Below, in pieces: positions 1 through 15,200 of a stretch of DNA of 64,000 nucleotides. How positions within the stretch are numbered: position 1 is the stretch's first letter; the number at the start of each line of letters is the position of its first letter. The position numbers were made by a program, and so were the translations under genes. The stretch is from positions 14,140,214-14,204,213 of the forward strand of contig JASCQW010000156.1 in NCBI GenBank assembly GCA_030264375.1. Reading direction: 5' to 3'. A model generated the notes under the pieces. The model was given only the letters and a program-made list of their open reading frames with translations, was not told the DNA's origin and ran no database searches. The stretch is from Carcharhinus longimanus (Eukaryota).

Positions 1-790
1 ATCCAAAAGTCTGACAGCAGCGGGGATGAAGTTGTTCTTGAGTCAATTGGTACGTTATCTCAAACTTTTGTATCTTTTCCCTGAAGGAAGAAGGTGAAAG
101 AGAAAATGTCTGGGGTGCTTCGGGTCCTTAATTATGCTGGCTGCTTTGCTGAAGTGTAGACAGAGTCAATGGATAGGAGGCTGGTTTGCGTGATGGATTG
201 GCATACATTCATAACCTTTTGTAGTTCCTTGGGGTCTTGCGCACAGCAGGAGCATACCAAGCTATGATAATAACAAGAAAGAATGCTTTCTATGGTGCAT
301 CTGTAAAAGTTGGTGTGAACTGTCGTTGACTTGTCAAATTTCCTTAGTCTTCTGAGAAAGTAGAGGCATTGGTGAGCTTTCTTAACTATAGTGTCAGTAT
401 GGAGGGACCAGGACAAGTTGTTGGTGATCTGGACAGCTAAAAACCTGAAGCTCTTGGCTCTTTCTACTTCATCCCCATTGATGTAGACAGGGGCATGTTC
501 TCCTTTACACTTCCTGAAGTTGATGACAACCTCCTTCGTTTTGTTGATATTGAGGGAGAGATTATTGTTGCTGCACCAGTTCACCAGATTCTCTATCTCA
601 TTCTTGTCCTCTGTCTTGTCATTGTTTGAGATCCAACCCACTATGGTGCTTCATCAGCAAACTTGAAAATCGAATTTCAGGGGAATTTGGCCACACAGTC
701 ATCGGTATATAAGGAGTATGACAGCCTTGTGGGACACCGGTGTTGAGGATGAGTGTGGAAGAGGTGTTGTTGCCTATCCTTACTGATTGT
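1..790 (-). mobile_element. Degenerate Rex1/Babar-clade non-LTR retrotransposon fragment (RT C-terminal part and 3' end)
   Basis: ORF 132-641 reads WCSNNNLSLNINKTKEVVINFRK...LYFLRRLRKF...FYRCTIESIL; ORF 619-849 has LNTGVPQG; a decayed KFAD motif lies near 650-665. The frame is broken. Clade assigned from motif recognition. Confidence 0.8.
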
Positions 791-1051
791 GGTACGTGGA
801 GATGCTGAATCAGGCAGCAAATAGACTGCATTGCCCAAATATCCTGCATATCAAAAGTTGGATGCTTTCATTGGCCATTCCCATTTTCCCATGGCTGGCT
901 AGCTGTGGTTGCCTCCCCTACCTACTTTGTCTACTACACTGGAATCAGCTGGTGAAATCTGGTATTCAAAACAAGAAAGCATCCTCCCCCATGGGTATGT
1001 GTGACTAAAAGTTCTATGAGTTTTGATACCAAATCAGTCATAAGAAGATCT

Positions 1052-1355
1052 CTGGTTCAAATGATGTTCTGTGTTGAGTTAGCTGATCTTAGCACAGTCA
1101 ATATTGACAGTATTACAATTCACTTCTGGGGCTACGAAAATGAAGTAGGATTCTTCTTCTTCTTAATTGCTATTCAGTAATCTCTGAAATATCTGTAGGA
1201 GTTAAGTGAAGACAGAAACAGGCTCAACAATGATGTTCCCATGCTGAATAACCTACTTGCACTCACAATTTAGACTCTCAAATCTAAAACATCAACTTCA
1301 TTAAAGTATCAGGACAGCTTTTTTGCATTCCAGCAGGAGTCACTGTTTCCAAGAG
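1052..1355 (+). mobile_element. Old SINE-like interspersed repeat (family unnamed)
   Basis: Core 'tgttgagttagctgatcttagc...caattcac...'; related decayed copies at ~14075-14290 (-), ~41245-41605 (+) and ~63545-63640 (-). Confidence 0.4.
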
Positions 1356-2106
1356 AAATGAAAAAAAATTGAAAAAGAGATAAAATGAATCTTGTTGATA
1401 CGTTACATGTGCAACGCTAACTTGGTTTTTTTTCTCTACACACATGCCAACAGGCCTGCTGTGTATTTCCAGCGTATTTTGTTTCAGTATTTGTACATGC
1501 TGAATATATAATCTTGAACTATTAAAAACATACAGGACTGAACGGAATGCATCAGAATTACTTTAATGAGACTTATACCATGCAGTAATGCAAACCTCCT
1601 GTGTCACACAGCCATTTGAAAACCCAAACACATATCAGGTGCATTGATGCCGATCTTGGTTTTCCACTCCCTTTGTGTGCCAACAGTGCACAGGGACAGA
1701 ATTTCAGTCCCTTTAAAAAGAAAATGTTGGATTCTTATGCAAGATCTCCTGAATCCAATACTATAGTAGTCATAGACAGAAATTGAATATTCCTTTATTT
1801 TAAAAGGCCAAGATTGTTCACATGCTAATGTATTAATGAGTACAACGAGGGTAATTCATATTTAAAGCTAAGTGTGAAAAGGTATATTTGTATATCAAAT
1901 TCAAGTCTGCTGAAATTAGCTAATGCATTTTAATCTTGGAAACAATGTATCACATTAACATGATCAACTGCAAGATAAAACAGTTACATATTAACTAATT
2001 GGTAAATTGATATTCTAAAATATCTACTCTGGTCAGATAGTGGGTGTGACTTTCCTCCACTGTTGCTAATTCATCAAACTATTCATCCAACATTTGGTAC
2101 AAGATG

Positions 2107-2347
2107 GGCAGAAATTTCCTCCAATTAAATACTGAGAAGACTGAAGCCATTGAGAGGAATTTCCTGGCCTTGTGGCGGAAGCAGTGCGCTGTTTGCCAAT
2201 GGTGGGATCTTTTGGTCTTATCACCATCAATGGGATTTCCCATTGCACTCACAATTTAGACTGTACCCCACATTGCTGGAAAATCCGTGGCAAAGGGCGG
2301 GGTGCCAGAAGATCTCACCAGCCTGAAAAGCTGGAAAATTGTGGCCA
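2107..2347. mobile_element. MITE-like non-autonomous element with imperfect terminal inverted repeats
   Basis: Starts gggcagaaatttcc and ends ggaaaattgtggcc; the same terminal motif bounds elements at 48808-48943 and 58537-58820. Confidence 0.5.
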
Positions 2348-2477
2348 TTGTTTTTGGTCATCACCCTTGTACTCGCTGACCTATGTTGGCTCCCAGTCAA
2401 GCAACATCCTGGTTTTGAAATTTTCATCAATGTTTTCATGGTCTTGCCAATCTCCTCCAACCCACAATCCTCTGAGA

Positions 2478-2660
2478 TATCAGTGCTTCTCTAATTCTGG
2501 CCACTTAGCCATTCCCAATCATAACTTCCATCATTGGTAACCATGGCGTCAATTGCCTCAAACTCTGGAATTCCCTCCCTACACCTCTTTGCCTCTGTAC
2601 CTCACTTCCTCCTTCGAGACACTTCTTAAAACTTACTTCTTTGACCAAGCTGATGGTTAT
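2478..2660 (+). mobile_element. L2-type LINE 3' end fragment
   Basis: 'ctctggaattccctccct...cttcttaaaacttacttctttgaccaagct' matches the L2 ORF2 end (LWNSLP...LKTYLF). Confidence 0.6.
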
Positions 2661-3309
2661 CTAATTTAGTATCTCCATATTGGCTTCATACCCTATCCTG
2701 ATGTACATAATCTGTGCTATGATCCTGAAAGATCTACGTCAAGAAAACCTTTGTCTGATTGAGGTCGTCGGAGGTAGCTAGGTTGGGGCATAGTCTGCAA
2801 TGGCGATTTCACTGATGAGCAGGCCTGTGCTTCAGTGATGCTGTTTGCGTTGAGTTGATGGCTGCCATTTTAAGTGGAAATGTGGACAGGATCTTGATTT
2901 TTGTCCAGCCCAGAATTTTGGTGTTCATTTTGATGAACTGCGAGATATCCTAAAGAAAATGGATGAAGCAGAGAATCCTGTCAATGGAGAGGACAAGTTC
3001 CTTGGTGAAGGCTCCCATCCTGCCTGACTCGGGGGAGATGGGACCAGAAGAGTATCCATGCACATAGTCTCCTGAGGGGTGCATTCCTGGCCGAATTTGA
3101 GAATTGGCTGCTATGCTTTCACAATCTTGAATTGAGAATTGAGCGTCTCGAGTTCGATGAAGCACATTGCATCCAGTCTTTGGGGCTTGGGGTCAGTCGA
3201 AGACTCTGACCACTAGTCTTACATTGTCTTGTTCTCAGTGTTCATCAGGAGGTTGCCAGATGTATTGGGTTCTTGCCACCCACAAGGACCTAGGCTGAGG
3301 TATAATAAT

Positions 3310-3389
3310 GGGTAAAATACTCTGTCGGAGGGTCGGTGCAGACTCAATGGGCAGAATTGTCTCCTTCTGCACTGTAAAGATTCTATGAT
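3310..3389 (+). mobile_element. HE1-type SINE 3' tail fragment
   Basis: 'ggtcggtgcagactcaatgggc...ccttctgcactgtaaagattctatgat', the same tail as the full copies at 22483 and 35215. Confidence 0.7.
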
Positions 3390-3439
3390 GGTGGTGGCCA
3401 TGCTAAAGGAAAGAAAACAGAAAATCATCCAAAATGATT

Positions 3440-4190
3440 ATTTTTCAAACTGGAGGATGGCAGGCAGTGATACTCCACAACTGCCAGTGCTCCATACAGA
3501 ATTTACTTGAATATTGGAATACAGAATAAAATTTCAAAATTTGCTAATTGCACCAAACTTAGAGGCATAGCAAACAGTGAGGATGATACCAATTAACTGC
3601 AAGAAGATATAAACAGACTAGCAGAATGGGCACAAGTAGCAAATAGAATTCAATACAAAGGTGATGCATTTTAATAGAAGGGATAAACAAAGGCAATATA
3701 TTCTTATTGTGAGAGTTCTAAATGTGCATGGGGTCCTCGGGTTTGGGGGAGTCATCTGCACTGTATTAGGACATTTTGAAATACAGGATTTTAGGTTTCA
3801 TATAACAAAGTATTGAGTACAAATACAAGGAAGCTATGCTGCACATTTATAAAACTCTGGTTAGGCTACAACTGGTGTATTGCATCCATTTCTGGTCACC
3901 ACACTTTAGGAAAAATGTGAATATCCTCAAGACGATGCAGAGAAGATTTACTGGAATGGTTCAAGGGATGAGGGAACTTTACTATAAGGTTAGGTTGCAG
4001 AAGCTGGTGTTGTTCTCCTTGAAGCAAAGAAGTGGAGGGGAAATCTGACAAGAGTGTACAAGATTATGACAGGTTTAGATAAAGTGGGCAAAAATAGCTG
4101 ATGTTATAAGAACCATGGTTCACAGGTTTAAGGTTTTAGCAACAATGAGAGGAAAAACTTTTCTATTCATGAGTGGTAATGTTCTGGAAC
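3440..4190 (+). mobile_element. Degenerate CR1 LINE RT fragment
   Basis: ORF 3836-4048 IYKTLVRLQLVYCIHFWSPHFRKNVNILKTMQRRFT is the typical CR1 ORF2 C-terminus; upstream LQEDINRLAEWA-like sequence. Confidence 0.8.
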
Positions 4191-4447
4191 TACATGATAG
4201 TAAAACCATCATACATTCATATGCAGGAACAGGTTCTTTGCAACCAGAAGGAATATGTTCAAACCTTGCACTTTGAGGAACTTTATACTTCTCCACTGCT
4301 TTTCTCCAATGACAACACCTCAATCAATCAAAGTTGACTTGCCAATCAAGACCAGCAGCCATTTTCCCTGCAGTATAAATTGAAATTTGGTATTCTTGCA
4401 TTTGATGTGATGCAGGATGAAAAGATTCGGCACAGGTCTCTTTTCAG

Positions 4448-4900
4448 CAATATTTGGATTTCCAAAAGGCATTGATAAAAGGTTGCTACACAAGATAAGA
4501 ACTATATGGGGTTTTTTTGGTGGGTAGGGGGTTATGGGGATGGGGGAGGTGGATGATATATTAGCATGGATTGAGGACCGCCTAACTAACAGAGAACAGA
4601 ATTGGGATAAATAGATAATTTTCAGGATGATAACTGCTGAAATGCCAGAAGGCCGCAACTATTTATCTGTATTGATGATTTGAATGAAGAGTATTGTGGT
4701 CAAGTTTTCTGATGATCAAAGATGGATAGGGAATCAAGTTGTGAGGAAGATACAAAGAGCATGCAAAGGATGATAGTGGACAGAGATAGAATATAATGTA
4801 GGAAAATGAGAAATTGTCCACTTTGTCAGGAAAAATAGAAAAGCAGAATATTATTTAATAGAGAGAGATTGCAAAATGCTGTAGCACAAAGGGATCTGGG
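4448..4900 (+). mobile_element. Degenerate CR1 LINE RT fragment
   Basis: YLDFQKA (tatttggatttccaaaaggca), AWIED, and KFSDD (aagttttctgatgat) remnants. Confidence 0.7.
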
Positions 4901-5344
4901 AATACCTTAATTTTCAATTTCACTCTATTGTTCATAAGTTAATTGTGGATACATTGTTTATATCTGAAAAATTATAAATGACCCTTTCATAAAAATCTAA
5001 CTTTAATTAAAATATGTATTAAAAACATTTCCAATGCATTAAAATAATCAGGTGAGTCCCACCCTGGGTGCATATCCTCATCAACACGTCAAACACGTTA
5101 AAAGTCCTTGTAGAGGAGTGCACAAACAAATTCAGAAATTGATTTGTCCTGCATGTGAGGAATTGTAGCCTTTCCTGAATGCATCCAACAGTAATACTGG
5201 AACAAAGGGTGATGCTAATTGCACTCATTACTTTCGTCAAGATTCTTTGAGGAGATTTTGTCACAAAAGACCTGCTCATCAAGTATCCTTCTTGTCTGGT
5301 TTAATAATCTCTACATGAATCTGTTTTCCAATTATGGAGTTGGG

Positions 5345-5535
5345 GAGGAGTTTCTTCTATCAGAGTGTCTTGAATTCTCTTCCCCAGTGAGAATTGGAGG
5401 CTGGGTCATTGAATATATTCAAATTTGAGTTAGACAGCATTTTGACTGACAAAGGAGTGAAGTGTTATATGGGCCCTGATCTTGTTGCATGGTGAAGCAG
5501 TGTCAAGAGATTGAATGGTCTACTCCTATCCCTGT
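5345..5535 (+). mobile_element. CR1 LINE 3' end fragment
   Basis: 'tttcttctatcagagtgtcttgaattctct...gaatggtctactcctatccctg' CR1 3' UTR signature. Confidence 0.6.
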
Positions 5536-6224
5536 TGGTATTCAAATTTAGTTGGATAAACTCTAGTATTATGCTGTTCACAATTGGGAATTTCTAAGCC
5601 TTGACCTTTGCCATATTGCACCTAAACTCTCTGTAGTTGGTTAAGTCAGGCATGTCCATTCAAGGAAGAGTGTGTACTCTAGACTGGGCAAACAGATAAG
5701 CACTATGCTGTTGATTTCTCAGTAGCTTAGTTTTGTGATCCTTAAGCATTGTGGTCAGTTTTTGCTTGTGCTAGACACTAAGATGACTGGAATGGAAATA
5801 AGGAGTAAGGCTTTGGCTGTTTGAGCAGCAAGGACTTTACAGCACTGGATGAATTGCACTAACTCAGCAAAAACTGCAAATTGAAACTATACTTTTCTGA
5901 AATATTATTTGGTACCATACGCTGTGGTGCACATGCCAAGATTTAATAAGGAAGCCTCAGGATTTGGCAAACATTTTTAAAGATCACAGAATCATAGAAA
6001 GAGGCCATTCAGTCCATCACGTCTGCACTGACAGAGTACGGTACCCATGACATGTTGCAACAATTTATTCAGGCATAGGTGGTTTTGAAGTGAAATCATT
6101 TCTGAAATAATAACACTCGCATCTTTTTAAATAATATGTATATATTTTCAGCCTTTAAGGGATGGATGGCCTTACTCAATTTGAGTTTATCCTGACATTA
6201 CATTGTTATTGGCAAGAAAAACTG

Positions 6225-6576
6225 GCAATTATTAAGCATTTTTCATGACAATGGATGTCTTAAAGTGGTTGAAAGCCAACTGTTGTAATGTAGGAAATTC
6301 AACAGCTAATTTGTGTACAACAAGCTTCTCAAACAGCAATGTGGACATAATACGTTTTTGAGATGTTGATTGAGGTGTCAACACTGGCCAAGACACGAGT
6401 ATATCCTCTGCTTTTTAGAAAAAGCAATGGGATCTTTTTCGTCCACCTGTGAGGGCAGATGGGGCCTTGATTTAGCATTTTATCCAAATGACAGCTTGAT
6501 TTGCATGCTCAAATCCTGTAATGGGCCTTGAACTCACGAGCATTTGACTCAAGAGGCCAGTGCTATCAGCTGACAC
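6225..6576 (-). mobile_element. Deu-domain SINE (SacSINE1/AmnSINE-related)
   Basis: 'atgggatctttttcgtccacctgtgagggcagatggggccttgatttagcat' resembles the reverse-complement Deu domain; tRNA-like head remnant at 6520-6576 (B-box-like gagttcaaggccc on minus). Confidence 0.6.
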
Positions 6577-6729
6577 TAAAGCAAAAATAGACAGAGACAG
6601 CCCTACATACAAAAACTTTATTATATAAGTCTCAATTTGATTTATATGTATAGCATTTTCTAAATTATTGATTATACATGAAAAAAGTTACATTAATACT
6701 TGATCTTTGTATAATTGTTCGGACATCTG

Positions 6730-7401
6730 AGACAGAAAAAATCCCGCCACGTTATATCGCATCAAGCTGATGATCTGTAAAACATACGATCAGTTTTGTA
6801 GAAGAAAGCTAATCTTGATAATTAATGATATCGAGTGAACTTCAGGGAAAAAAATCCCTCCCTTCTGCGCTGTAATTTTAAAAGCCGACGGTCTGTGAAA
6901 CCAGTTATTGCATGTTTGTAGGCTGCTGTTGAAATTCGGTGGGCAGTGTACTGGTTCCTGGAAGAGCCCTGGGGGAGTCAGACGCATTCTTGGCTGAGAT
7001 TCAATGCCTGACCTAGACGTCGACAAACAGAGGGGAGAAGGCAGTCTGAGCTGCAAGGTCGTATTGTGTGGATATGCCGCGTCTTTACGCTTGCAGATCG
7101 TAAAGAGGGCTGAAAAGAAGAAAAAAAGGAAACAAAGTACAGAGTCTAAAACCAATTGGGGACTGGATTTCGAAGGACTGGTTCAACCAGCATTTGCTTG
7201 AAGAGATCTTTTTAAGGGCACAATTGTGGATATGTTTGAACGCAGGAGTGCTGCAGAAACACAGCACGCTTAGAGACTGGATTTCATGAGCTACTTTAAT
7301 TTTGTCCGTGGTGGTAGGGCAAACTTGGACGCCGTGGCTTTTTAAAAGGGGGATTTATCTTATTTTAAACAAAACGGGTGTGCTTTTTGGGGTCAGAAAT
7401 C
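6730..7401 (+). promoter_or_regulatory. Putative SKI proximal promoter / 5' UTR
   Basis: CpGs reappear from ~6720; repeat-free; E2F-like TCCCGCC at ~6742; lies directly before the SKI ATG. TSS cannot be placed from sequence. Confidence 0.5.
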
Positions 7402-8310
7402 ATGGAGACTGTACCAAGATCTAGTTTTCAGCCTCATCCAGGACTCCAGCAAACCTTAAAGCAGTTTCATCTCAGCAGTATGAGTTCGCTTGGAGGACCG
7501 GCGGCTTTCTCTGCTCGGTGGGCTCACGAGATGATGTACAAAAAGGAAACTGGGAAAGAGACAGATCAGATTATTCACCTACCTATACAGCCGCCTCCTG
7601 TCATGCCAGGACCCCTCTTCATCCCCTCGGACCGATCAACGGAGAGATGCGAGACCATTCTGGAGGGGGAAACCATTTCTTGTTTCGTAGTTGGTGGGGA
7701 GAAGAGGCTTTGCTTGCCTCAGATCCTGAACTCTGTGCTAAGAGATTTTTCCCTCCAACAGATCAATTCAGTATGTGATGAATTACATATTTACTGCTCT
7801 AGATGCACGGCAGACCAGCTGGAGATCCTGAAAGTCATGGGGATTTTGCCCTTCTCTGCCCCATCCTGTGGCTTGATCACCAAGACAGACGCAGAAAGGC
7901 TTTGTAATGCCTTACTCTACGGGGGAACCTACCCTCCCCATTGCAAAAAAGAATACTCTAGTACCATTGAGTTAGAGATCACAGAAAAAAGCTTCAAAGT
8001 ATACCATGAGTGTTTTGGGAAGTGCAAGGGACTCTTTGTGCCTGAATTGTACGGTAACCCTCATGCTGCATGTATCCAGTGCATGGACTGCAGGCTTATG
8101 TACCCTCCTCACAAATTTGTAGTGCATTCGCACAAATCATTGGAAAACAGAACCTGCCACTGGGGTTTCGATTCGGCCAACTGGAGAGCCTATGTCCTTT
8201 TGAGTCAGGATTACACGGCAAAAGAAGAGAAGGCACGATTGGAACAGTTGCTGGATGAAATGAAAGAAAGATTTGACTACAGCAACAAATACAAAAGAAA
8301 AGCACCCAGG
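7402..8310 (+). CDS. SKI: SKI proto-oncogene (Ski, SMAD co-repressor), first coding exon, 303 codons
   Basis: Translation [40 protein letters not shown]...[47 protein letters not shown]...[21 protein letters not shown]...[14 protein letters not shown]...NKYKRKAPR closely follows vertebrate Ski (N-terminal R-SMAD-binding segment, DHD, C2H2 zinc SAND domain) and fits SKI better than SKIL. Kozak context atcATGG; phase-0 donor AGG|GTGAGC at 8310/8311, equivalent to the end of human exon 1. Confidence 0.97.
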
Positions 8311-10749
8311 GTGAGCGTTTTTTCTAACTTGAGACGTATCTTTTACTATGGGTCGTTACAGTTAACTATTTCCACTATGGCTTAGAAAAAACCTGTCAAA
8401 ACTAGTATTGAGGGCGTTTGAATATAACCTTTTCTCAGGCTTTTTCAAACTCACCATAGGCGCTAATAAATATGACTCAGAACTGAACACAATTTCTCTC
8501 AATACTTAAAAAGTTAAATCATTCATTTTCGGTTTCACAAGCAGCGATACTGGACACGCATGTATTGTATCCTGGTTCTGTAAGCAGTTTCTACCGAGTT
8601 TTGTTTATCACTGTGGAAATTATGCATTTAAATTTCATTTCAGATGTACTTTCCCTTCCCTTGATGGAGAAGTTTTGAAATCATGAATGATATCTTTAAA
8701 TACTTGAAGGTGTACGTATTTTAATCGTTACCCATTATAGATAATGACGTGCTAAATTGGAAGCATTAAGTTGACTACGAGCTGCTCAATGTGATAGTTT
8801 CAGACAAGGGTGTGTGTTTCCTTGCTCACTAATATGTGGGAGTGGTTTTGTGAGACGTACATTAGTATGGAGAGGGCTGACTCTTAACTGCAGGCATGGC
8901 CTGTGTTGGGCACTGTTTTAGCCAATCCACATCCAGTTAGCAGATCGTGGGGATATTTAATGCCGAAAGACAAACTGGGGAAGCTGCTTAATCCGACCTA
9001 TACTCAAAACTAGATTTCAACATTATCACGACTGTGCTTAGTTTCGCTCACGTTTCATCTGGAAATACACATGGGAGTCATGAATATATGCTGAACCTGT
9101 CTGGGCAATTCATTCCAGATTATAAAAATGAGTTTGAAACTATGAGTTTGAAAATACAATTCGGCGATAAAAATCCGTGAATGATCGCCAATTTTCCTAC
9201 CTCCAAAGTGCGCTGTTAGCCTACCACTTCGATTTCTTCTGGTGTAAAAGTGAAAAGTTTGTATTTTTGTTTTTAGTGCTTTTTTTCCCCCTGTTAGCAC
9301 CCATCCCACTCTCTTTCATTCTGATTTCCAAACAGGAGCTAGCAGACACTGAATTGATTGTTTTTTTTTGCGTGGGTAAAGGTTACGGCCGTGAACCTTG
9401 GGATACCTCTTAACTGAATTAAAAAGGAAACGCTGAACTTTTCATTTGCATCAGTTGTTATGAATAAAAAAAACCGATGAAGTAAACTCGGGACATTGAT
9501 AAGTATGCGGTTTTGACTCTCAATGGGCTAATTCATTCTCTCGCGCCTTTTGGATTTTTGCCCCTGCTATAATATTGTACATTACTCGAGCAATTACAGC
9601 GCATTTAGTAAGCAGAAAAATAATGAGCTGTTCCAAGGAATATTGGATTGTGCTGCTTAAGTCTTTGGAGGAGAGAATTTACTTTGAAGAAATCAAGTTG
9701 CTAGAGTGTTTTTAAAAAGCAAAACTCTTTAGACCACAAAGTTACTTAAGAGGCGAAAATGGTCTCTCAACAGTTAAAGTCTAAGCTTTAGACATCGTGA
9801 AGGATCATTTTTCACACTTTCAAAATCGAACATTTAATAATGCAAGTGAACAGACATTTTAGGGAAAATCAAGTACTCCTTTGTGCCATCTGGATGAAAT
9901 CTGATATTTCATGCCAATTTTAAAGGGACAACTACAGAATCAGTTTGGTGATTATTCATTGCGAATGTAGATCCGTGCATTAAAAAATTGAGGTGCCCCA
10001 TTTCTGGATTTCTATCAATAAAAGTAACAAAATCACAGGAATATCCCTGTGATTTTTGTAAAAGCGTAATTTTCGATTTGCTGGGTAAATTCAAAATTGA
10101 AGCATGCACGCTGGAGGGCCCCGCCAGAAAGTATGGAAAGATCGCGTGCAATACAGACAGGAAGTTGTGGTTAATGAGACTTGTGGATATTGCGAAAGGC
10201 GAGAGAACTTAATGTGCAGGAGTGTTGAGAAACCTGGGTGTACGGACTTTGTCAAGATTAGACTTGAATCCTGCCCTCGTCCTCACACGCACCAGTTGAT
10301 GCAATTCTAGATTGACTAAGATAGGTGGCCATATAAGTTACTGTTGTCATCCCTCTTAGGTTTATGGCGGGAATTTGTAAAATAACTGGTGTGAAGTCTT
10401 ACCTCCCAGTCTTTTCGTACGAAACTGTATTTTTTCGTATTCTAACAACTCGGGATTCCTACTAGTGTATCCAGTTAACCTCCATATTCGCACCCTATAA
10501 TTTAGGTGGATGTGGGAAAGTAAAATTCCAAAGAGGCAATTTCCATTGTAAAATATTTTTGTTTCATGATTAAGTGTGCCGTGGCTAAAATACATTCTGG
10601 ATTTTCATACAGGAGTTAGAATTTTGGAGGGGGGGTAAAGAGAGAGAGGATGATAGTCTCAAGTCCTGAAAACACACAGGACCTTCAATTCTACCTCCCA
10701 CCATCACCAAATACCCGTGTATGATTGCAATAACAAAGATGCCTAGTGA

Positions 10750-11600
10750 CATTTTGTCACGTGTCTAAAACACTATTCACAACCAGTCAGGTGACCAAGT
10801 CGAAGCTCATTGGACACGCCAGATTCAACGACGTCACAGCCTAGGCCCAAAGTGCGCCACATGACTGAAATGGCGCATGCTCAGCACACGTGCCATGCCA
10901 CCTGCCTTACAATTGTGGTCAATTGAAGGAATTAAAAATCACATCCATGACACATCAAGGCGGGTAGCTCAAAACCAGATAGACGCGTCGCTGCCTCCGG
11001 CTATCGTGCAATGCCATCATCCCACCGAGTTTGTATTGCGTCAAATACCCTTACCTCATTTATTTTGTTGATTCGACACTTCTGGTGGAGCGGTGGCGGA
11101 GATTTTTGGTTTAAACGATGCTGAGAGTTAAATTCTCTCCGAAAGATGGTGGATGGGAAATTGGCGACGGATCGAACGACGACGTTTGGGGGAGACGACA
11201 CGGACATAGCACCTTCTCCTAGTTGACGGGGCAGAAGGTTGCCATGGTGACCGGATCGGGGCCTTTTCATAGGCTGCGCCCTTCGCTTCGCGCGCTGATC
11301 GTTGATGCATGCCAAGGCCACGCGGCAGCTCGGAATTCGAAGCTGTGCAGCGCGCGCGACAGGGCTAACGGTCCCAGGGTGGCGTCACGTGATCCCTGCC
11401 CGTGGCTATGGCGAACCCAGTGCTCAATACTGCTGATCAGGTTAGCCCGCCACCTCTTTTGCACCCCCCTCATCCTTTCAGGATAACGCACACAACCAAA
11501 TTAAGAAAAGTCAGCCGTATTTTAAATTCAACAGCCGATATTATGAGAGGCTGCCACTTTCTGAGGAATAAACGGTACGCGCTCTCACACTTCAAAAGGT
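10750..11600. promoter_or_regulatory. Intronic CpG-island promoter-like element
   Basis: Highest CpG/GC density in the window; CACGTG at 10758, 10887 and 11386; CRE-like GACGTCA at 10830; YY1/NRF1-like AAATGGCGCATGCTC at ~10868-10882; ATTGG at ~10809 and ~11160; RFX X-box GTTGCCATGGTGAC at 11238-11251. Confidence 0.7.
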
Positions 11601-11696
11601 TTGTGGACTTATAATATGATTTTAAAATGTGGTGAATTTGTTGTGGTTTCTCGTGGAGACACCAGAAGAGTGTGATTTTACTACCATGAAGTAGTT

Positions 11697-12288
11697 TATT
11701 GGTGTGTTTTGTCAAATTATGCCATCAGAGGTTGCAGTGATCTGGTTAGAACTAAAATATTGGTTCTTCTCTGGAGCTAAAGAAGCAGTCCTTCAGCAGG
11801 TTTTAAATATTTTCATACATCTAAGCACAATTTATACACCAAAATAAAATATGATTTACGAAGCAGAGTATAAGAATTAATTCATTCTGAGCTGATTTGC
11901 CTCCCTGAGTTTGAAGACGTTTTAATAGTTTGGCTAGTGACTTCCCAAAGTTTTCAGAGTTTAAAGAACTTGAGTGACCCAACCGTAGCCTTTTGAAATA
12001 AGGGGAAGATGTTAAAATATTAAGAGATAGTTAATATGGTTGGCACTTCATGGAATGTTCCTAATTTAATACTTTTATCATTTTTTCTTTGATTTAGTTA
12101 ATATGCCAGATTTGTATCGCACCGTTCAAAAATTTCAAAATTGCTTTGTATTGGAGTGTTTTGTCAAAATATGCCACTAAAGGTTGCAGTGATCTGGTTA
12201 GAAATAAAATATTCGTTCTTTTCTGGTTCTAAAGAAGTTGTCCTTCAGGAGATTTTAAATATTTTCATAAAATACCTCAACACAATTT
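11697..12288 (+). repeat. Diverged ~137-bp direct repeat, two copies (11697-11833 and 12149-12288)
   Basis: Shared gtgttttgtcaaa..tatgcca..aggttgcagtgatctggttagaa.taaaatatt...ccttcag..ttttaaatattttcata...cacaattt; offset 452 bp. Confidence 0.9.
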
Positions 12289-15200
12289 GAATGTACAAAT
12301 TGAAGTTCACTTTTAAACTTAAATACATTTAAAACGTTTGAAACTGTAAGTAATGTAACAGGATTTTTTTTTAGATTTGTTCTTTTCAGTGCACTTTAGG
12401 TTGTGAAGTGTACTTCCAGATCTATCTAGGGTTTCTAAGTTTGTATCTAGTTTCAATTGAAATTTTATTTATTGCATACATTCCTCTAAATATTTAGTAT
12501 ACAGATGCATTTGTAAAGAATTAGTAATTGTCGTGAAGCTTCAATGATATGTAAATGAAGTCAATTATATGTAGGGTTTTAATTAGCAGCTAGGTTCATG
12601 TGTGAAGTACATCAGATTAATTATGTGGCACATCTGCTGATAATTTACTACTTTTCTGCAGACCCATCAAAACTGTGAAATTTGCATCCTTAGGTAGTTT
12701 GACAAGAAACAGAGGAATTTGACAACAAATAAATCATGTTTTGCCCCGTCTGTTATGTTTGAAACTGTTTTGACTTTTTAACAGGTTAAATGAATGGCTT
12801 CATTAAATTGTGTTACTTAATTTTAGTAATTGTACAGTTTTAGTGGGTTATGTGTCTTGAAATTGTTTCAACTTTCCTTTTTAGAAAATGAATGCCCCCA
12901 AATATGGATTGCTTACACAAAGCTTTTTAGTGAATTGAATAGAACTGACCTTGTGTTTCGTCACCTAATCAAATCTGACCATTTTAATTCAGACTTTCAT
13001 ATATTGATTAGGCAAGTCATCTTATGTTTTGCTTGTGTATGTGTTCTGCAAGGGTGATGAGAATATCTTTAATCTGCTTCTGAGAAATAAGTGTTTCTGC
13101 CCAAGGGAGATAGATATGGGAGGGACACAGCAGTTGTCAAGCATACAAGAGTCATATTGGCCCAAAGGGACTAAATTTTAAAACAAAATATGCACAATGA
13201 GGTTTTTTAAAAGGAGAATAAAGCTGGTTTGATGTGGTTTGTCATAATGGGAAAAAATCTTGTTTTTCTTTGAAACCATCTCAAAAAAAACATTCTTCTG
13301 ATGGCATCTTGTGACTGGAAGTACTGTTTAGTAATAACTGAGTAAAATTACATTTGAATATGAATGTCAATATGTGAATTTTAATCTCTTGAAGAGGGCA
13401 ATCGGTGACACAACCAACTGACAACTCCAAGGGAATTTGGAGATTTAATTGATTATAGTATAACAGAGTGATTGTTAATTTGCTTGAAGTTTTTCAGAGT
13501 TGTGCTATTGTATTCCATTACTGAGAGTTCAAGGTACAATGATTTTTATGTGTGACTTTTAGTTGCCAGGTATGAACACAGGACACTATTGCTATGACCT
13601 ACCAGAAATAGCAAATTGTTCTTTATAAGCATGCATAATTGTCATTTTAATTTTGGATGATGTGGATGACTGTAAGTTGACCGTACTTACTGAATACCAC
13701 CTTAGAGAATGGTAATTTCGGCACATAGTTCAAATGACGCACAAGGAATCCAACACTGATGGTAATGCCTACTAATATTATGCATTTTGGATGTCAAATG
13801 AAAATTGACTGGGCAGTGGATGATAGTCACTTGGACAAGGTAGCAGAAAATGCTAGTTGCCAATGCAACTCTATATGGCTGTTGGGAGAGAACACACAAG
13901 AAACAAACAGGAAAACCATTTGTTTCCTCCAGTTATTTCCTCCTTTTCAGTGAAATGCCTGAATGTTGGTGAGGTACAATCTCACATATGTCAGATTTTT
14001 GGGTACTTCACTCCTCAGCGGGCATTCTTCATTTTGCGGCTAGACAGTGAATGTTAGAACAATTGGATTGGGTGAGAACTAGTTAGTTTTGATCCTGTAC
14101 TCGCCCAATACCTGTAGAAGCATACTTGCCAGCAGAGATTGGCAGCTAGAAATCAGGAGCTCGATTTGTAGCTGATTTTTCCCACCTCCCTAGTCCAGGA
14201 ACATTGAGGCAAACTGTAATGCTTAGGCTGAGCTTATTTAACTAAACCTAGATCGGAGATCTAACCTGTCACCTCCTGATCTATATCTGCTGACATTTTC
14301 TGACCTTTCAGACCAATGTAGTGTAAAGAAAAATTGGTGTTTGTCCATTATCTATTTGATAAGTTATGATTTTGAGAGAAGATCCATAAGGGCTGTAGAA
14401 TGAAGCAAAAGTAACTATAGTGTTTCAATAATGGGTACCTAAACACATCTGCAGGTGAAATAATTACAGGAAACTTTAATCACAGTGGAGTATGGCAAAT
14501 GGTAAATGTATTTTAGATGAGCAGATGCCAGTTTAAAAAAAGTTGGTTTGATGGCACAAGAACCAGGACAGGGATCCAGTTGTTTTATTTTGCCCATTCT
14601 GTCCTTAAATTGGTGTTAATTAATTTTCACAATGCAGATGATTGATTAAACTCTTTACATTAGGAGGGAAAGTAGTTAGTCTGGACACCTTGCAAAAATG
14701 TTATTACCACAAACATTTGGCTGTGATGTATACCTGGAGATGCCTAAAAATACAGGAAAGTGTTAAGTTTTTAATGTAATGGAAACAGTTGATACAGATC
14801 CTCATTTACTGTCTGATAAAGAAACAACCCTGGTGACTTGGGAATGGGAGTTGTGTAAGTCAGCAAGGAATCATTTTTTTAAGCATAGGCTTCATGATAG
14901 CAGAATTGATACTGAAAACTGAGCATTGTACAATTTAGGTCTGAAAAGTAGTACAGTTGAGAGGGTTGAGATGTGTTTGTATATTTTCATATCTTCTTGA
15001 GTTTGAAATGGGTATTCTATTTTTTTTCTCTACATCACAATATTTCACATCCCTCTCCCCAAAGAAAATACAGTGATCAATAAACCATTTTCTAAAGAAA
15101 TTGGGAAGGATTATTTGATATGCTCTTCAGAATGTGCAAAATGGCATTTTTCTAAACAAGATGCAGTGTTCCAGAATAAAGAAATTTGTATAACAATCAT

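Follow-up and report, generated by a model that had tools for sequence, protein, structure and literature searches.

A CpG-rich element with an RFX X-box in SKI intron 1 of Carcharhinus longimanus as a putative antisense-facing promoter

The first intron of SKI in Carcharhinus longimanus raises the question of whether it holds a second promoter that faces back toward exon 1, and whether an RNA started there would be spliced. A preliminary description had assigned three minus-strand splice donors to an antisense transcript launched inside the intron and running through exon 1, either as a lncRNA or as 5' untranslated exons of FAAP20. The window, meaning the whole 64,000-nucleotide stretch that was analysed, corresponds to contig C156:14140214-14204213, and positions given without a contig name are counted from its first letter. 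The setting is defined by two features of the host gene:

6857 to 7401, plus strand: SKI 5' region covered by contigs of relatives, with 6857 the furthest point reached; the contigs give no start site
7402 to 8310, plus strand: coding part of SKI exon 1, with the Dachshund-homology and Smad4-binding domains (Pfam PF02437 and PF08782)

The contigs come from eight runs (seven organisms) of the 18 RNA-type runs, 18 of the 24 listed runs having been typed as RNA by guess and the other six being of unknown kind, probably DNA. The word shares of the RNA-type runs are 0.10 to 0.21, approximately what SKI exon 1 alone yields, and the contigs are unstranded, approximately 90% alike in the intron and from relatives with no close match to this species. 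The contigs extend to 8313 in all eight runs. Since their loose end maps to C156:14313743, the position of the next SKI exon, intron 1 is approximately 165 kb long. The upstream region of SKI itself (6601-6900) is AT-rich, with a CpG content far below that of the intronic element described below, and carries, near 6745, a minus-strand GGCGGGA motif that is presumably E2F-like. At the left end of the window (1-760, minus strand) is a reverse-transcriptase remnant, which we take to be of a LINE-type family and which is heavily covered by repeat contigs.

The CpG domain and its downstream edge

Four features describe the region from which an antisense RNA would start:

6600 to 11600: CpG-retaining domain that runs from the SKI promoter through exon 1 and 3.3 kb into intron 1
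11001 to 11500: CpG peak at the downstream edge of the domain, a promoter-like element
11238 to 11251, minus strand: RFX X-box GTCACCATGGCAAC, which fits the consensus printed in the accessible part of PMC4168999
11385 to 11392: palindromic E-box TCACGTGA

The observed/expected CpG ratio is 0.72 at 6601-11700 and 0.23 over 204 kb in a 200-nt profile, and the right edge of the domain is sharp, falling near 11600. In sharks, as set out in the accessible part of PMC5437953 and as is commonly accepted, retained CpG is a sign of regulatory DNA that is free of methylation. The element at the edge contains 40 CpG per 500 nt (o/e 1.06, GC 0.55), which makes it the CpG-richest 500 bases within the surrounding 404 kb and places its CpG density above that of the FAAP20 and SKI start regions. 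The stretch 10300-11500 is single copy, with one genomic match. Just beyond the edge there is a local duplication of approximately 140 bases (11697-11833 and 12149-12288).

The X-box GTCACCATGGCAAC differs from GTTGCCATGGCAAC at two positions, both of which are allowed by the degenerate consensus. The pattern occurs 756 times genome-wide, compared to 67 times for the reversed control, an 11-fold excess in which palindromic sites count twice. With 42 CpG, the site described here ranks first of 23 when set against 22 other X-box loci that exhibit 0 to 25, these being the first listed, all on contig C1 and several of them rich in N. The majority of the 22 are CpG-poor and enhancer-like. In the accessible text of PMC5838959, functional human X-boxes are mostly found within 500 bp of a TSS, and X-box enhancers also exist. 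A second, degenerate X-box-like stretch (GTTCGCCATAGCCAC, 11415-11402, minus strand) is located approximately 150 nt upstream of the main X-box; paired boxes are described for RFX targets in the part of PMC4168999 that is accessible. A palindromic match to a looser X-box consensus is also present elsewhere in the SKI locus, near C156:14326721 (window coordinate 186508), outside the CpG peaks. The E-box TCACGTGA, presumably of the USF/TFE type, is one of three such sites in 404 kb.

The direction in which the element would fire can be approached through the donors and poly(A) signals on its two sides:

11567 to 13222, plus strand: five AATAAA signals beyond the element

Over 2 kb on either side of the X-box, the minus side contains three donors of at least 8 bits and a single AATAAA, 9 nt before the first donor, and the plus side contains no donor of this strength and the five AATAAA listed above. 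Moderate plus-strand donors are located at 11440 (7.6 bits) and 11574 (6.9 bits). The minus strand is free of AATAAA between 11064 and 6622, and gaps of that length account for 5 of 174 in 204 kb. A combined donor/poly(A)-signal asymmetry this large is found at 4-9% of positions, depending on the span (p 0.04-0.09), and it is absent from the FAAP20 promoter, which was used as a control. Under the U1/poly(A)-signal model of promoter direction, as set out in the accessible part of PMC11230626, the asymmetry modestly favours firing on the minus strand, antisense to SKI.

Splice motifs, coding capacity and RNA contigs

The predicted antisense exons, and the two further stretches that bear on them, are as follows:

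11055 to 11230, minus strand: putative first antisense exon, with a guessed start, AATAAA from 11064 and the strong donor GAG/GTAAGG at its 3' end
10403 to 10665, minus strand: candidate second exon, with a fair acceptor at 10665, a weak alternative at 10494 and a strong donor at 10403
8455 to 8610, minus strand: doubtful third exon, with a weak acceptor and a strong donor
7109 to 7130, minus strand: pyrimidine tract resembling a very strong acceptor, on the antisense side of the SKI 5' UTR and not listed in the preliminary description
9512 to 10292, strand not given: stretch matched by unspliced contigs in two of the eight runs, inside SKI intron 1 and inside an intron of the transcript first proposed

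The three minus-strand donors are found exactly where the preliminary description placed them: GAG/GTAAGG (exon end 11055), GAG/GTAAGA (10403) and ATG/GTGAGT (8455). They score 11.3, 10.4 and 9.9 bits compared to 9.3 bits for the real SKI exon-1 donor, with predicted U1 duplexes of -10.1, -9.6 and -9.2 kcal/mol compared to -9.0 kcal/mol. All splice scores were obtained with an approximate vertebrate donor matrix and a crude pyrimidine-tract acceptor score. Among 202 non-overlapping windows taken from the surrounding 404 kb, eight, counting this one, contain three donors of at least 9.85 bits in a 2.85-kb span (6 of 102 on the plus strand, 2 of 100 on the minus strand), and the donor trio alone is therefore unremarkable. 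The placement of the strongest two is less common: they lie 183 and approximately 835 nt beyond the X-box, a donor of at least 11.2 bits being present in 1.5% of windows of 200 nt and a pair of at least 10.3 bits in 0.5-1.3% of windows of 900 nt, with both thresholds set post hoc at the observed scores.

The proposed acceptors before 10665, 10494 and 8610 are likewise exact in position, and they are uneven in strength. Their scores are 4.8, -1.3 and -4.0, compared to 2.2, 2.2 and 4.6 for the real FAAP20 acceptors. Ranked against all AGs, 10665 falls at percentile 98.5, 10494 at 84.8 and 8610 at 71.3, so that the latter two are weak; equal or better sites occur 10 times per kb per strand for 10494 and 19 times for 8610. 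The tract at 7109 scores 11.0, about the highest value in 204 kb, and is not among the 12 best of the 49,141 AGs in 404 kb. It may mark the next exon of the antisense RNA or be no more than purine-rich UTR sequence, and it is crossed unbroken by contigs in five of the eight runs of relatives. The SKI contig of a non-shark vertebrate (L017) likewise has a purine tract in the SKI 5' region. Taken together, the splice motifs are real and their cluster is mildly unusual, and the sequence does not imply an exon chain, because the trio recurs in 8 of 202 windows and the acceptors are uneven. The specific three- or four-exon structure is a prediction that rests on two weak acceptors.

An open reading frame of 38 aa was reproduced on the path 11055>10494, 10403>8610, as first described. 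The accompanying statement that other paths hit early stops requires amendment, in that 3 of 18 paths, all through the previously unlisted acceptor at 7109, give ATG ORFs of 138-170 aa. A stop-free minus-strand frame of 130 codons is present at 7182-6793. A 2-nt insertion at 7101 in the contigs of three of the four relatives compared, the fourth having no cover, would shift the frame of the 138-170 aa ORF. For the 127-aa frame that covers the first exon, a search of 1.84 billion representatives gave no match, and none of 25 candidates from a larger protein library proved related to it. A protein search with the 80-aa frame over the second exon found no relatives. Pfam gave nothing for either frame, and there were no Rfam matches at E up to 1 within 5000-14000. 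The antisense RNA, if made, is most likely non-coding. The description of the transcript as a lncRNA is thus plausible with regard to its product, which shows no coding signal, and the exon chain attached to it is putative.

No joint at the proposed splice sites is listed for the contigs of relatives. The three joints listed for four runs, including X17, are all indels, and those listed for the other four, including X9, are all elsewhere; both results refer to unstranded contigs. An X17 contig of 1110 nt covers 9512-10292 in four pieces (approximately 90% alike, depth 8), and an X9 contig of 253 nt lies at 9672-9930 (depth 3.3); both are unspliced. These contigs lie along the route that an antisense RNA from the element would take, and they fit unspliced antisense RNA, SKI pre-mRNA or DNA equally well. 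Cover by the relatives' contigs is zero at 8407-9340 and 10275-11675 in the four runs that include X9, and at 8370-9354, 10340-10733 and 10931-12112 in the four that include X17, with one low-depth X17 piece within 10734-10930; these gaps, like the contigs as a whole, speak neither for nor against the transcript.

The interval between SKI and FAAP20

The neighbour invoked for the downstream end of the transcript was mapped from orthologues and is located outside the window:

C156:14032836-14052859, minus strand: FAAP20, four coding exons, with the ATG at 14052859
C156:14032842-14032916, minus strand: FAAP20 exon encoding the UBZ domain

FAAP20 is indeed the upstream head-to-head neighbour of SKI and the next gene on the minus strand. 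The proposal that the antisense exons are its 5' UTR exons is unlikely, because the FAAP20 ATG exon is located 95 kb from the SKI ATG and inside a CpG element of its own (C156:14052714-14053213), so that a proximal promoter-like element is already present there. Six of eight shark orthologues start with MAEEKK and a seventh carries MAEEKK internally; the closest named shark orthologue is 91% identical. A weak AG (score 1.3) precedes the ATG by 13 nt, which makes a distal FAAP20 UTR possible, and nothing requires one. The shark orthologues are 358-394 aa in length with a long third exon, and their sources label them uncharacterized. Human FAAP20 is approximately half as long. A search for PF15751 across the genome gave no match.

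The rest of the interval was scanned with 271 of its 274 minus-strand frames of at least 45 aa, repeat-masked to at most 40%, the three border-crossing frames being excluded. Two Pfam hits are above the cut-off (RVT_1 and Nucleoprot-TPR) and five more are below it. A hidden coding gene was rejected on these hits, which represent a reverse-transcriptase piece and a broken, TPR-like dispersed repeat, and no other Pfam-recognised gene was identified between SKI and FAAP20 (exons of fewer than 45 codons would escape). The TPR-like coiled-coil piece (C156:14055213-14056113, minus strand; L008:5000-5900) is broken and intronless, matches Nucleoprot-TPR with an E-value of 7.7e-13 and sits 2.4 kb upstream of FAAP20. 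From 423 candidates, 40 of which were scored, 47 further matches at 67-78% identity were found on many contigs, and the sequence may represent a repeat family in hundreds of old copies.

A backward-facing promoter and its alternatives

The reading preferred here is that the CpG element and its X-box form a second, backward-facing promoter that starts a non-coding RNA toward SKI exon 1, and a probability of about 0.5 is assigned to it. The X-box, the position at the domain edge and the asymmetry of donors and poly(A) signals make a minus-facing promoter plausible, as the preliminary description had it; the spliced transcript that was to come from it is itself not observed. The element would lack methylation and be occupied by an RFX factor, and polymerase would start near 11200 on the minus strand. 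U1 bound at 11055, and at 10403, could then permit elongation, and initiation in the plus direction would end early. The antisense RNA could cross SKI exon 1 and extend as far as the AATAAA at 6622, or past it. If human convergent promoters are a guide, function would reside in the DNA element, with SKI made RFX-responsive through a shared open-chromatin domain; the RNA itself would be a by-product made at low level, and its splicing beyond the first donor is uncertain.

The strongest competitor, of lower probability yet still to be taken seriously, is that the element serves as an intronic enhancer bound by RFX or is plain SKI CpG domain, with short unstable bidirectional RNAs at most, splice motifs that occur by chance and no stable spliced antisense RNA. 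The recurrence of the donor trio, the two weak acceptors and the CpG-poor, enhancer-like nature of most other X-box sites are consistent with this, as are the X-box enhancers known from the accessible text of PMC5838959 and the statement in that of PMC4972320 that downstream antisense transcripts in human "are not apparently stable". An enhancer or plain domain accounts less well for a CpG density well above that of the other X-box sites and of the FAAP20 and SKI start regions, for an 11.3-bit donor 183 nt beyond the X-box and for poly(A) signals confined largely to one side. At the other extreme, it is improbable that a multi-exon, RFX-driven antisense RNA is spliced over SKI exon 1 to 7109, or on to FAAP20, and ties SKI to a ciliogenesis or spermatogenesis programme. 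If such an RNA were real, it would represent long-range convergent promoters in cartilaginous fish at the gene for SKI, a TGF-beta/Smad co-repressor.

Three further readings are considerably weaker. An internal plus-strand SKI promoter, whose transcript would join exon 2 and omit the exon-1 domains, would suit an element within SKI intron 1 that has moderate plus donors and an exon 2 at a known position; it is very unlikely given that the nearest 2 kb hold five AATAAA and no plus donor of 8 bits, and that exon 2 is approximately 162 kb away. Lower still is the chance that the exons are distal FAAP20 5' UTR exons, in which case the first FAAP20 intron would contain SKI exon 1. The order of the genes and the weak AG before the ATG would allow it, and in the accessible part of PMC11735407, human daRNAs extend across the host TSS in 97% of cases, with some entering annotated genes. 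It would demand an intron of approximately 95 kb in a gene whose ATG exon has its own CpG element and a MAEEKK start that recurs among its orthologues, and human FAAP20 has a strong TSS of its own according to the same source. That the transcript encodes a small protein, of 38 aa or of 138-170 aa through the 7109 acceptor, is the most remote reading of all: the three longer paths and the 130-codon frame speak for it, and the frame-shifting insertion and the absence of relatives or Pfam matches for the 127-aa and 80-aa frames speak against it.

With the antisense-facing promoter as the preferred reading, the closest known systems are the convergent promoters and daRNAs of Wiechens et al. 2025 (PMC11735407) and the daTSSs of Lavender et al. 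2016 (PMC4972320), both cited here from their accessible portions. Convergent promoters account for 24.5-29.2% of annotated human TSS peaks (PMC11735407), and those bound by RFX7 co-regulate both partners, as in PIK3IP1/PIK3IP1-DT. With regard to the proposed regulation of SKI by an antisense RNA, knock-down of the RNAs in this closest studied class did not change the partner consistently. The SKI element resembles them in that the putative second promoter lies downstream of the host TSS, faces it and shares one CpG domain with it, in the RFX-type site that its downstream partner carries, as in PIK3IP1/PIK3IP1-DT, and in the expectation that its non-coding RNA crosses the host TSS as daRNAs do. 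Among human daTSSs for which a CpG island overlaps the gene TSS, 55% lie within 250 bp of the downstream island edge, and factor motifs are found just upstream of the antisense start (PMC4972320); the SKI element likewise sits at the downstream edge of a promoter CpG island with motifs just upstream of its putative start.

The distance is a point of difference. From the putative antisense start at approximately 11200 to the SKI 5' region, which extends at least to 6857, is approximately 4.3 kb, compared to a limit of 2.5 kb and a median of 413 bp for the convergent promoters (PMC11735407) and a 2 kb definition and median of 507 nt for daTSSs (PMC4972320). The spacing therefore exceeds the human operational limit of 2.0-2.5 kb, while a single CpG domain and an edge position are found as in those classes. 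As the distance is greater than 2.5 kb and the TSS that would define the class is putative here, the element is filed as working like a convergent promoter and not as a proven member. Unlike the apparently unstable daTSS transcripts, the strong donors here could allow a stabler, spliced RNA. With RFX X-box promoters (PMC5838959 and PMC4168999, in the parts accessible) it shares a full-site X-box in a CpG-rich element, and it differs from them in that no ciliary or other protein-coding gene is tied to this predicted box.

Backward-facing promoters are a common arrangement at vertebrate genes, and the locus is best described as a real promoter-like element of this common kind with a plausible antisense RNA, an unproven exon structure and an unlikely link to FAAP20. 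If correct, it would provide one shark example of a class to which about one in four active human TSSs belongs (PMC11735407, accessible part) and would identify SKI as receiving a testable input from RFX. No new type of system would be involved; its unusual points are limited to the strong donors and the wider spacing. No entry for human SKI was found in supplementary files 1-11, tables S1-S5 and part of table S6 of PMC11735407, the portions covered, in which its paralogue SKIL (five rows) and FAAP20 are present. Searches of the openly accessible literature listed no paper that describes an RFX site or an antisense transcript within the first intron of SKI. A metagenome scan with SKI identified three loci among 70 stretches, with L017 the only close orthologue, and the 4.4 kb of intron 1 available on that contig lack both an X-box and intron sequence resembling that of the shark. 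At L017:2750-3500, approximately 1.3 kb into intron 1, CpG content rises modestly, together with a minus-strand CCAAT box, and the stretch possibly represents an unrelated antisense-facing element.
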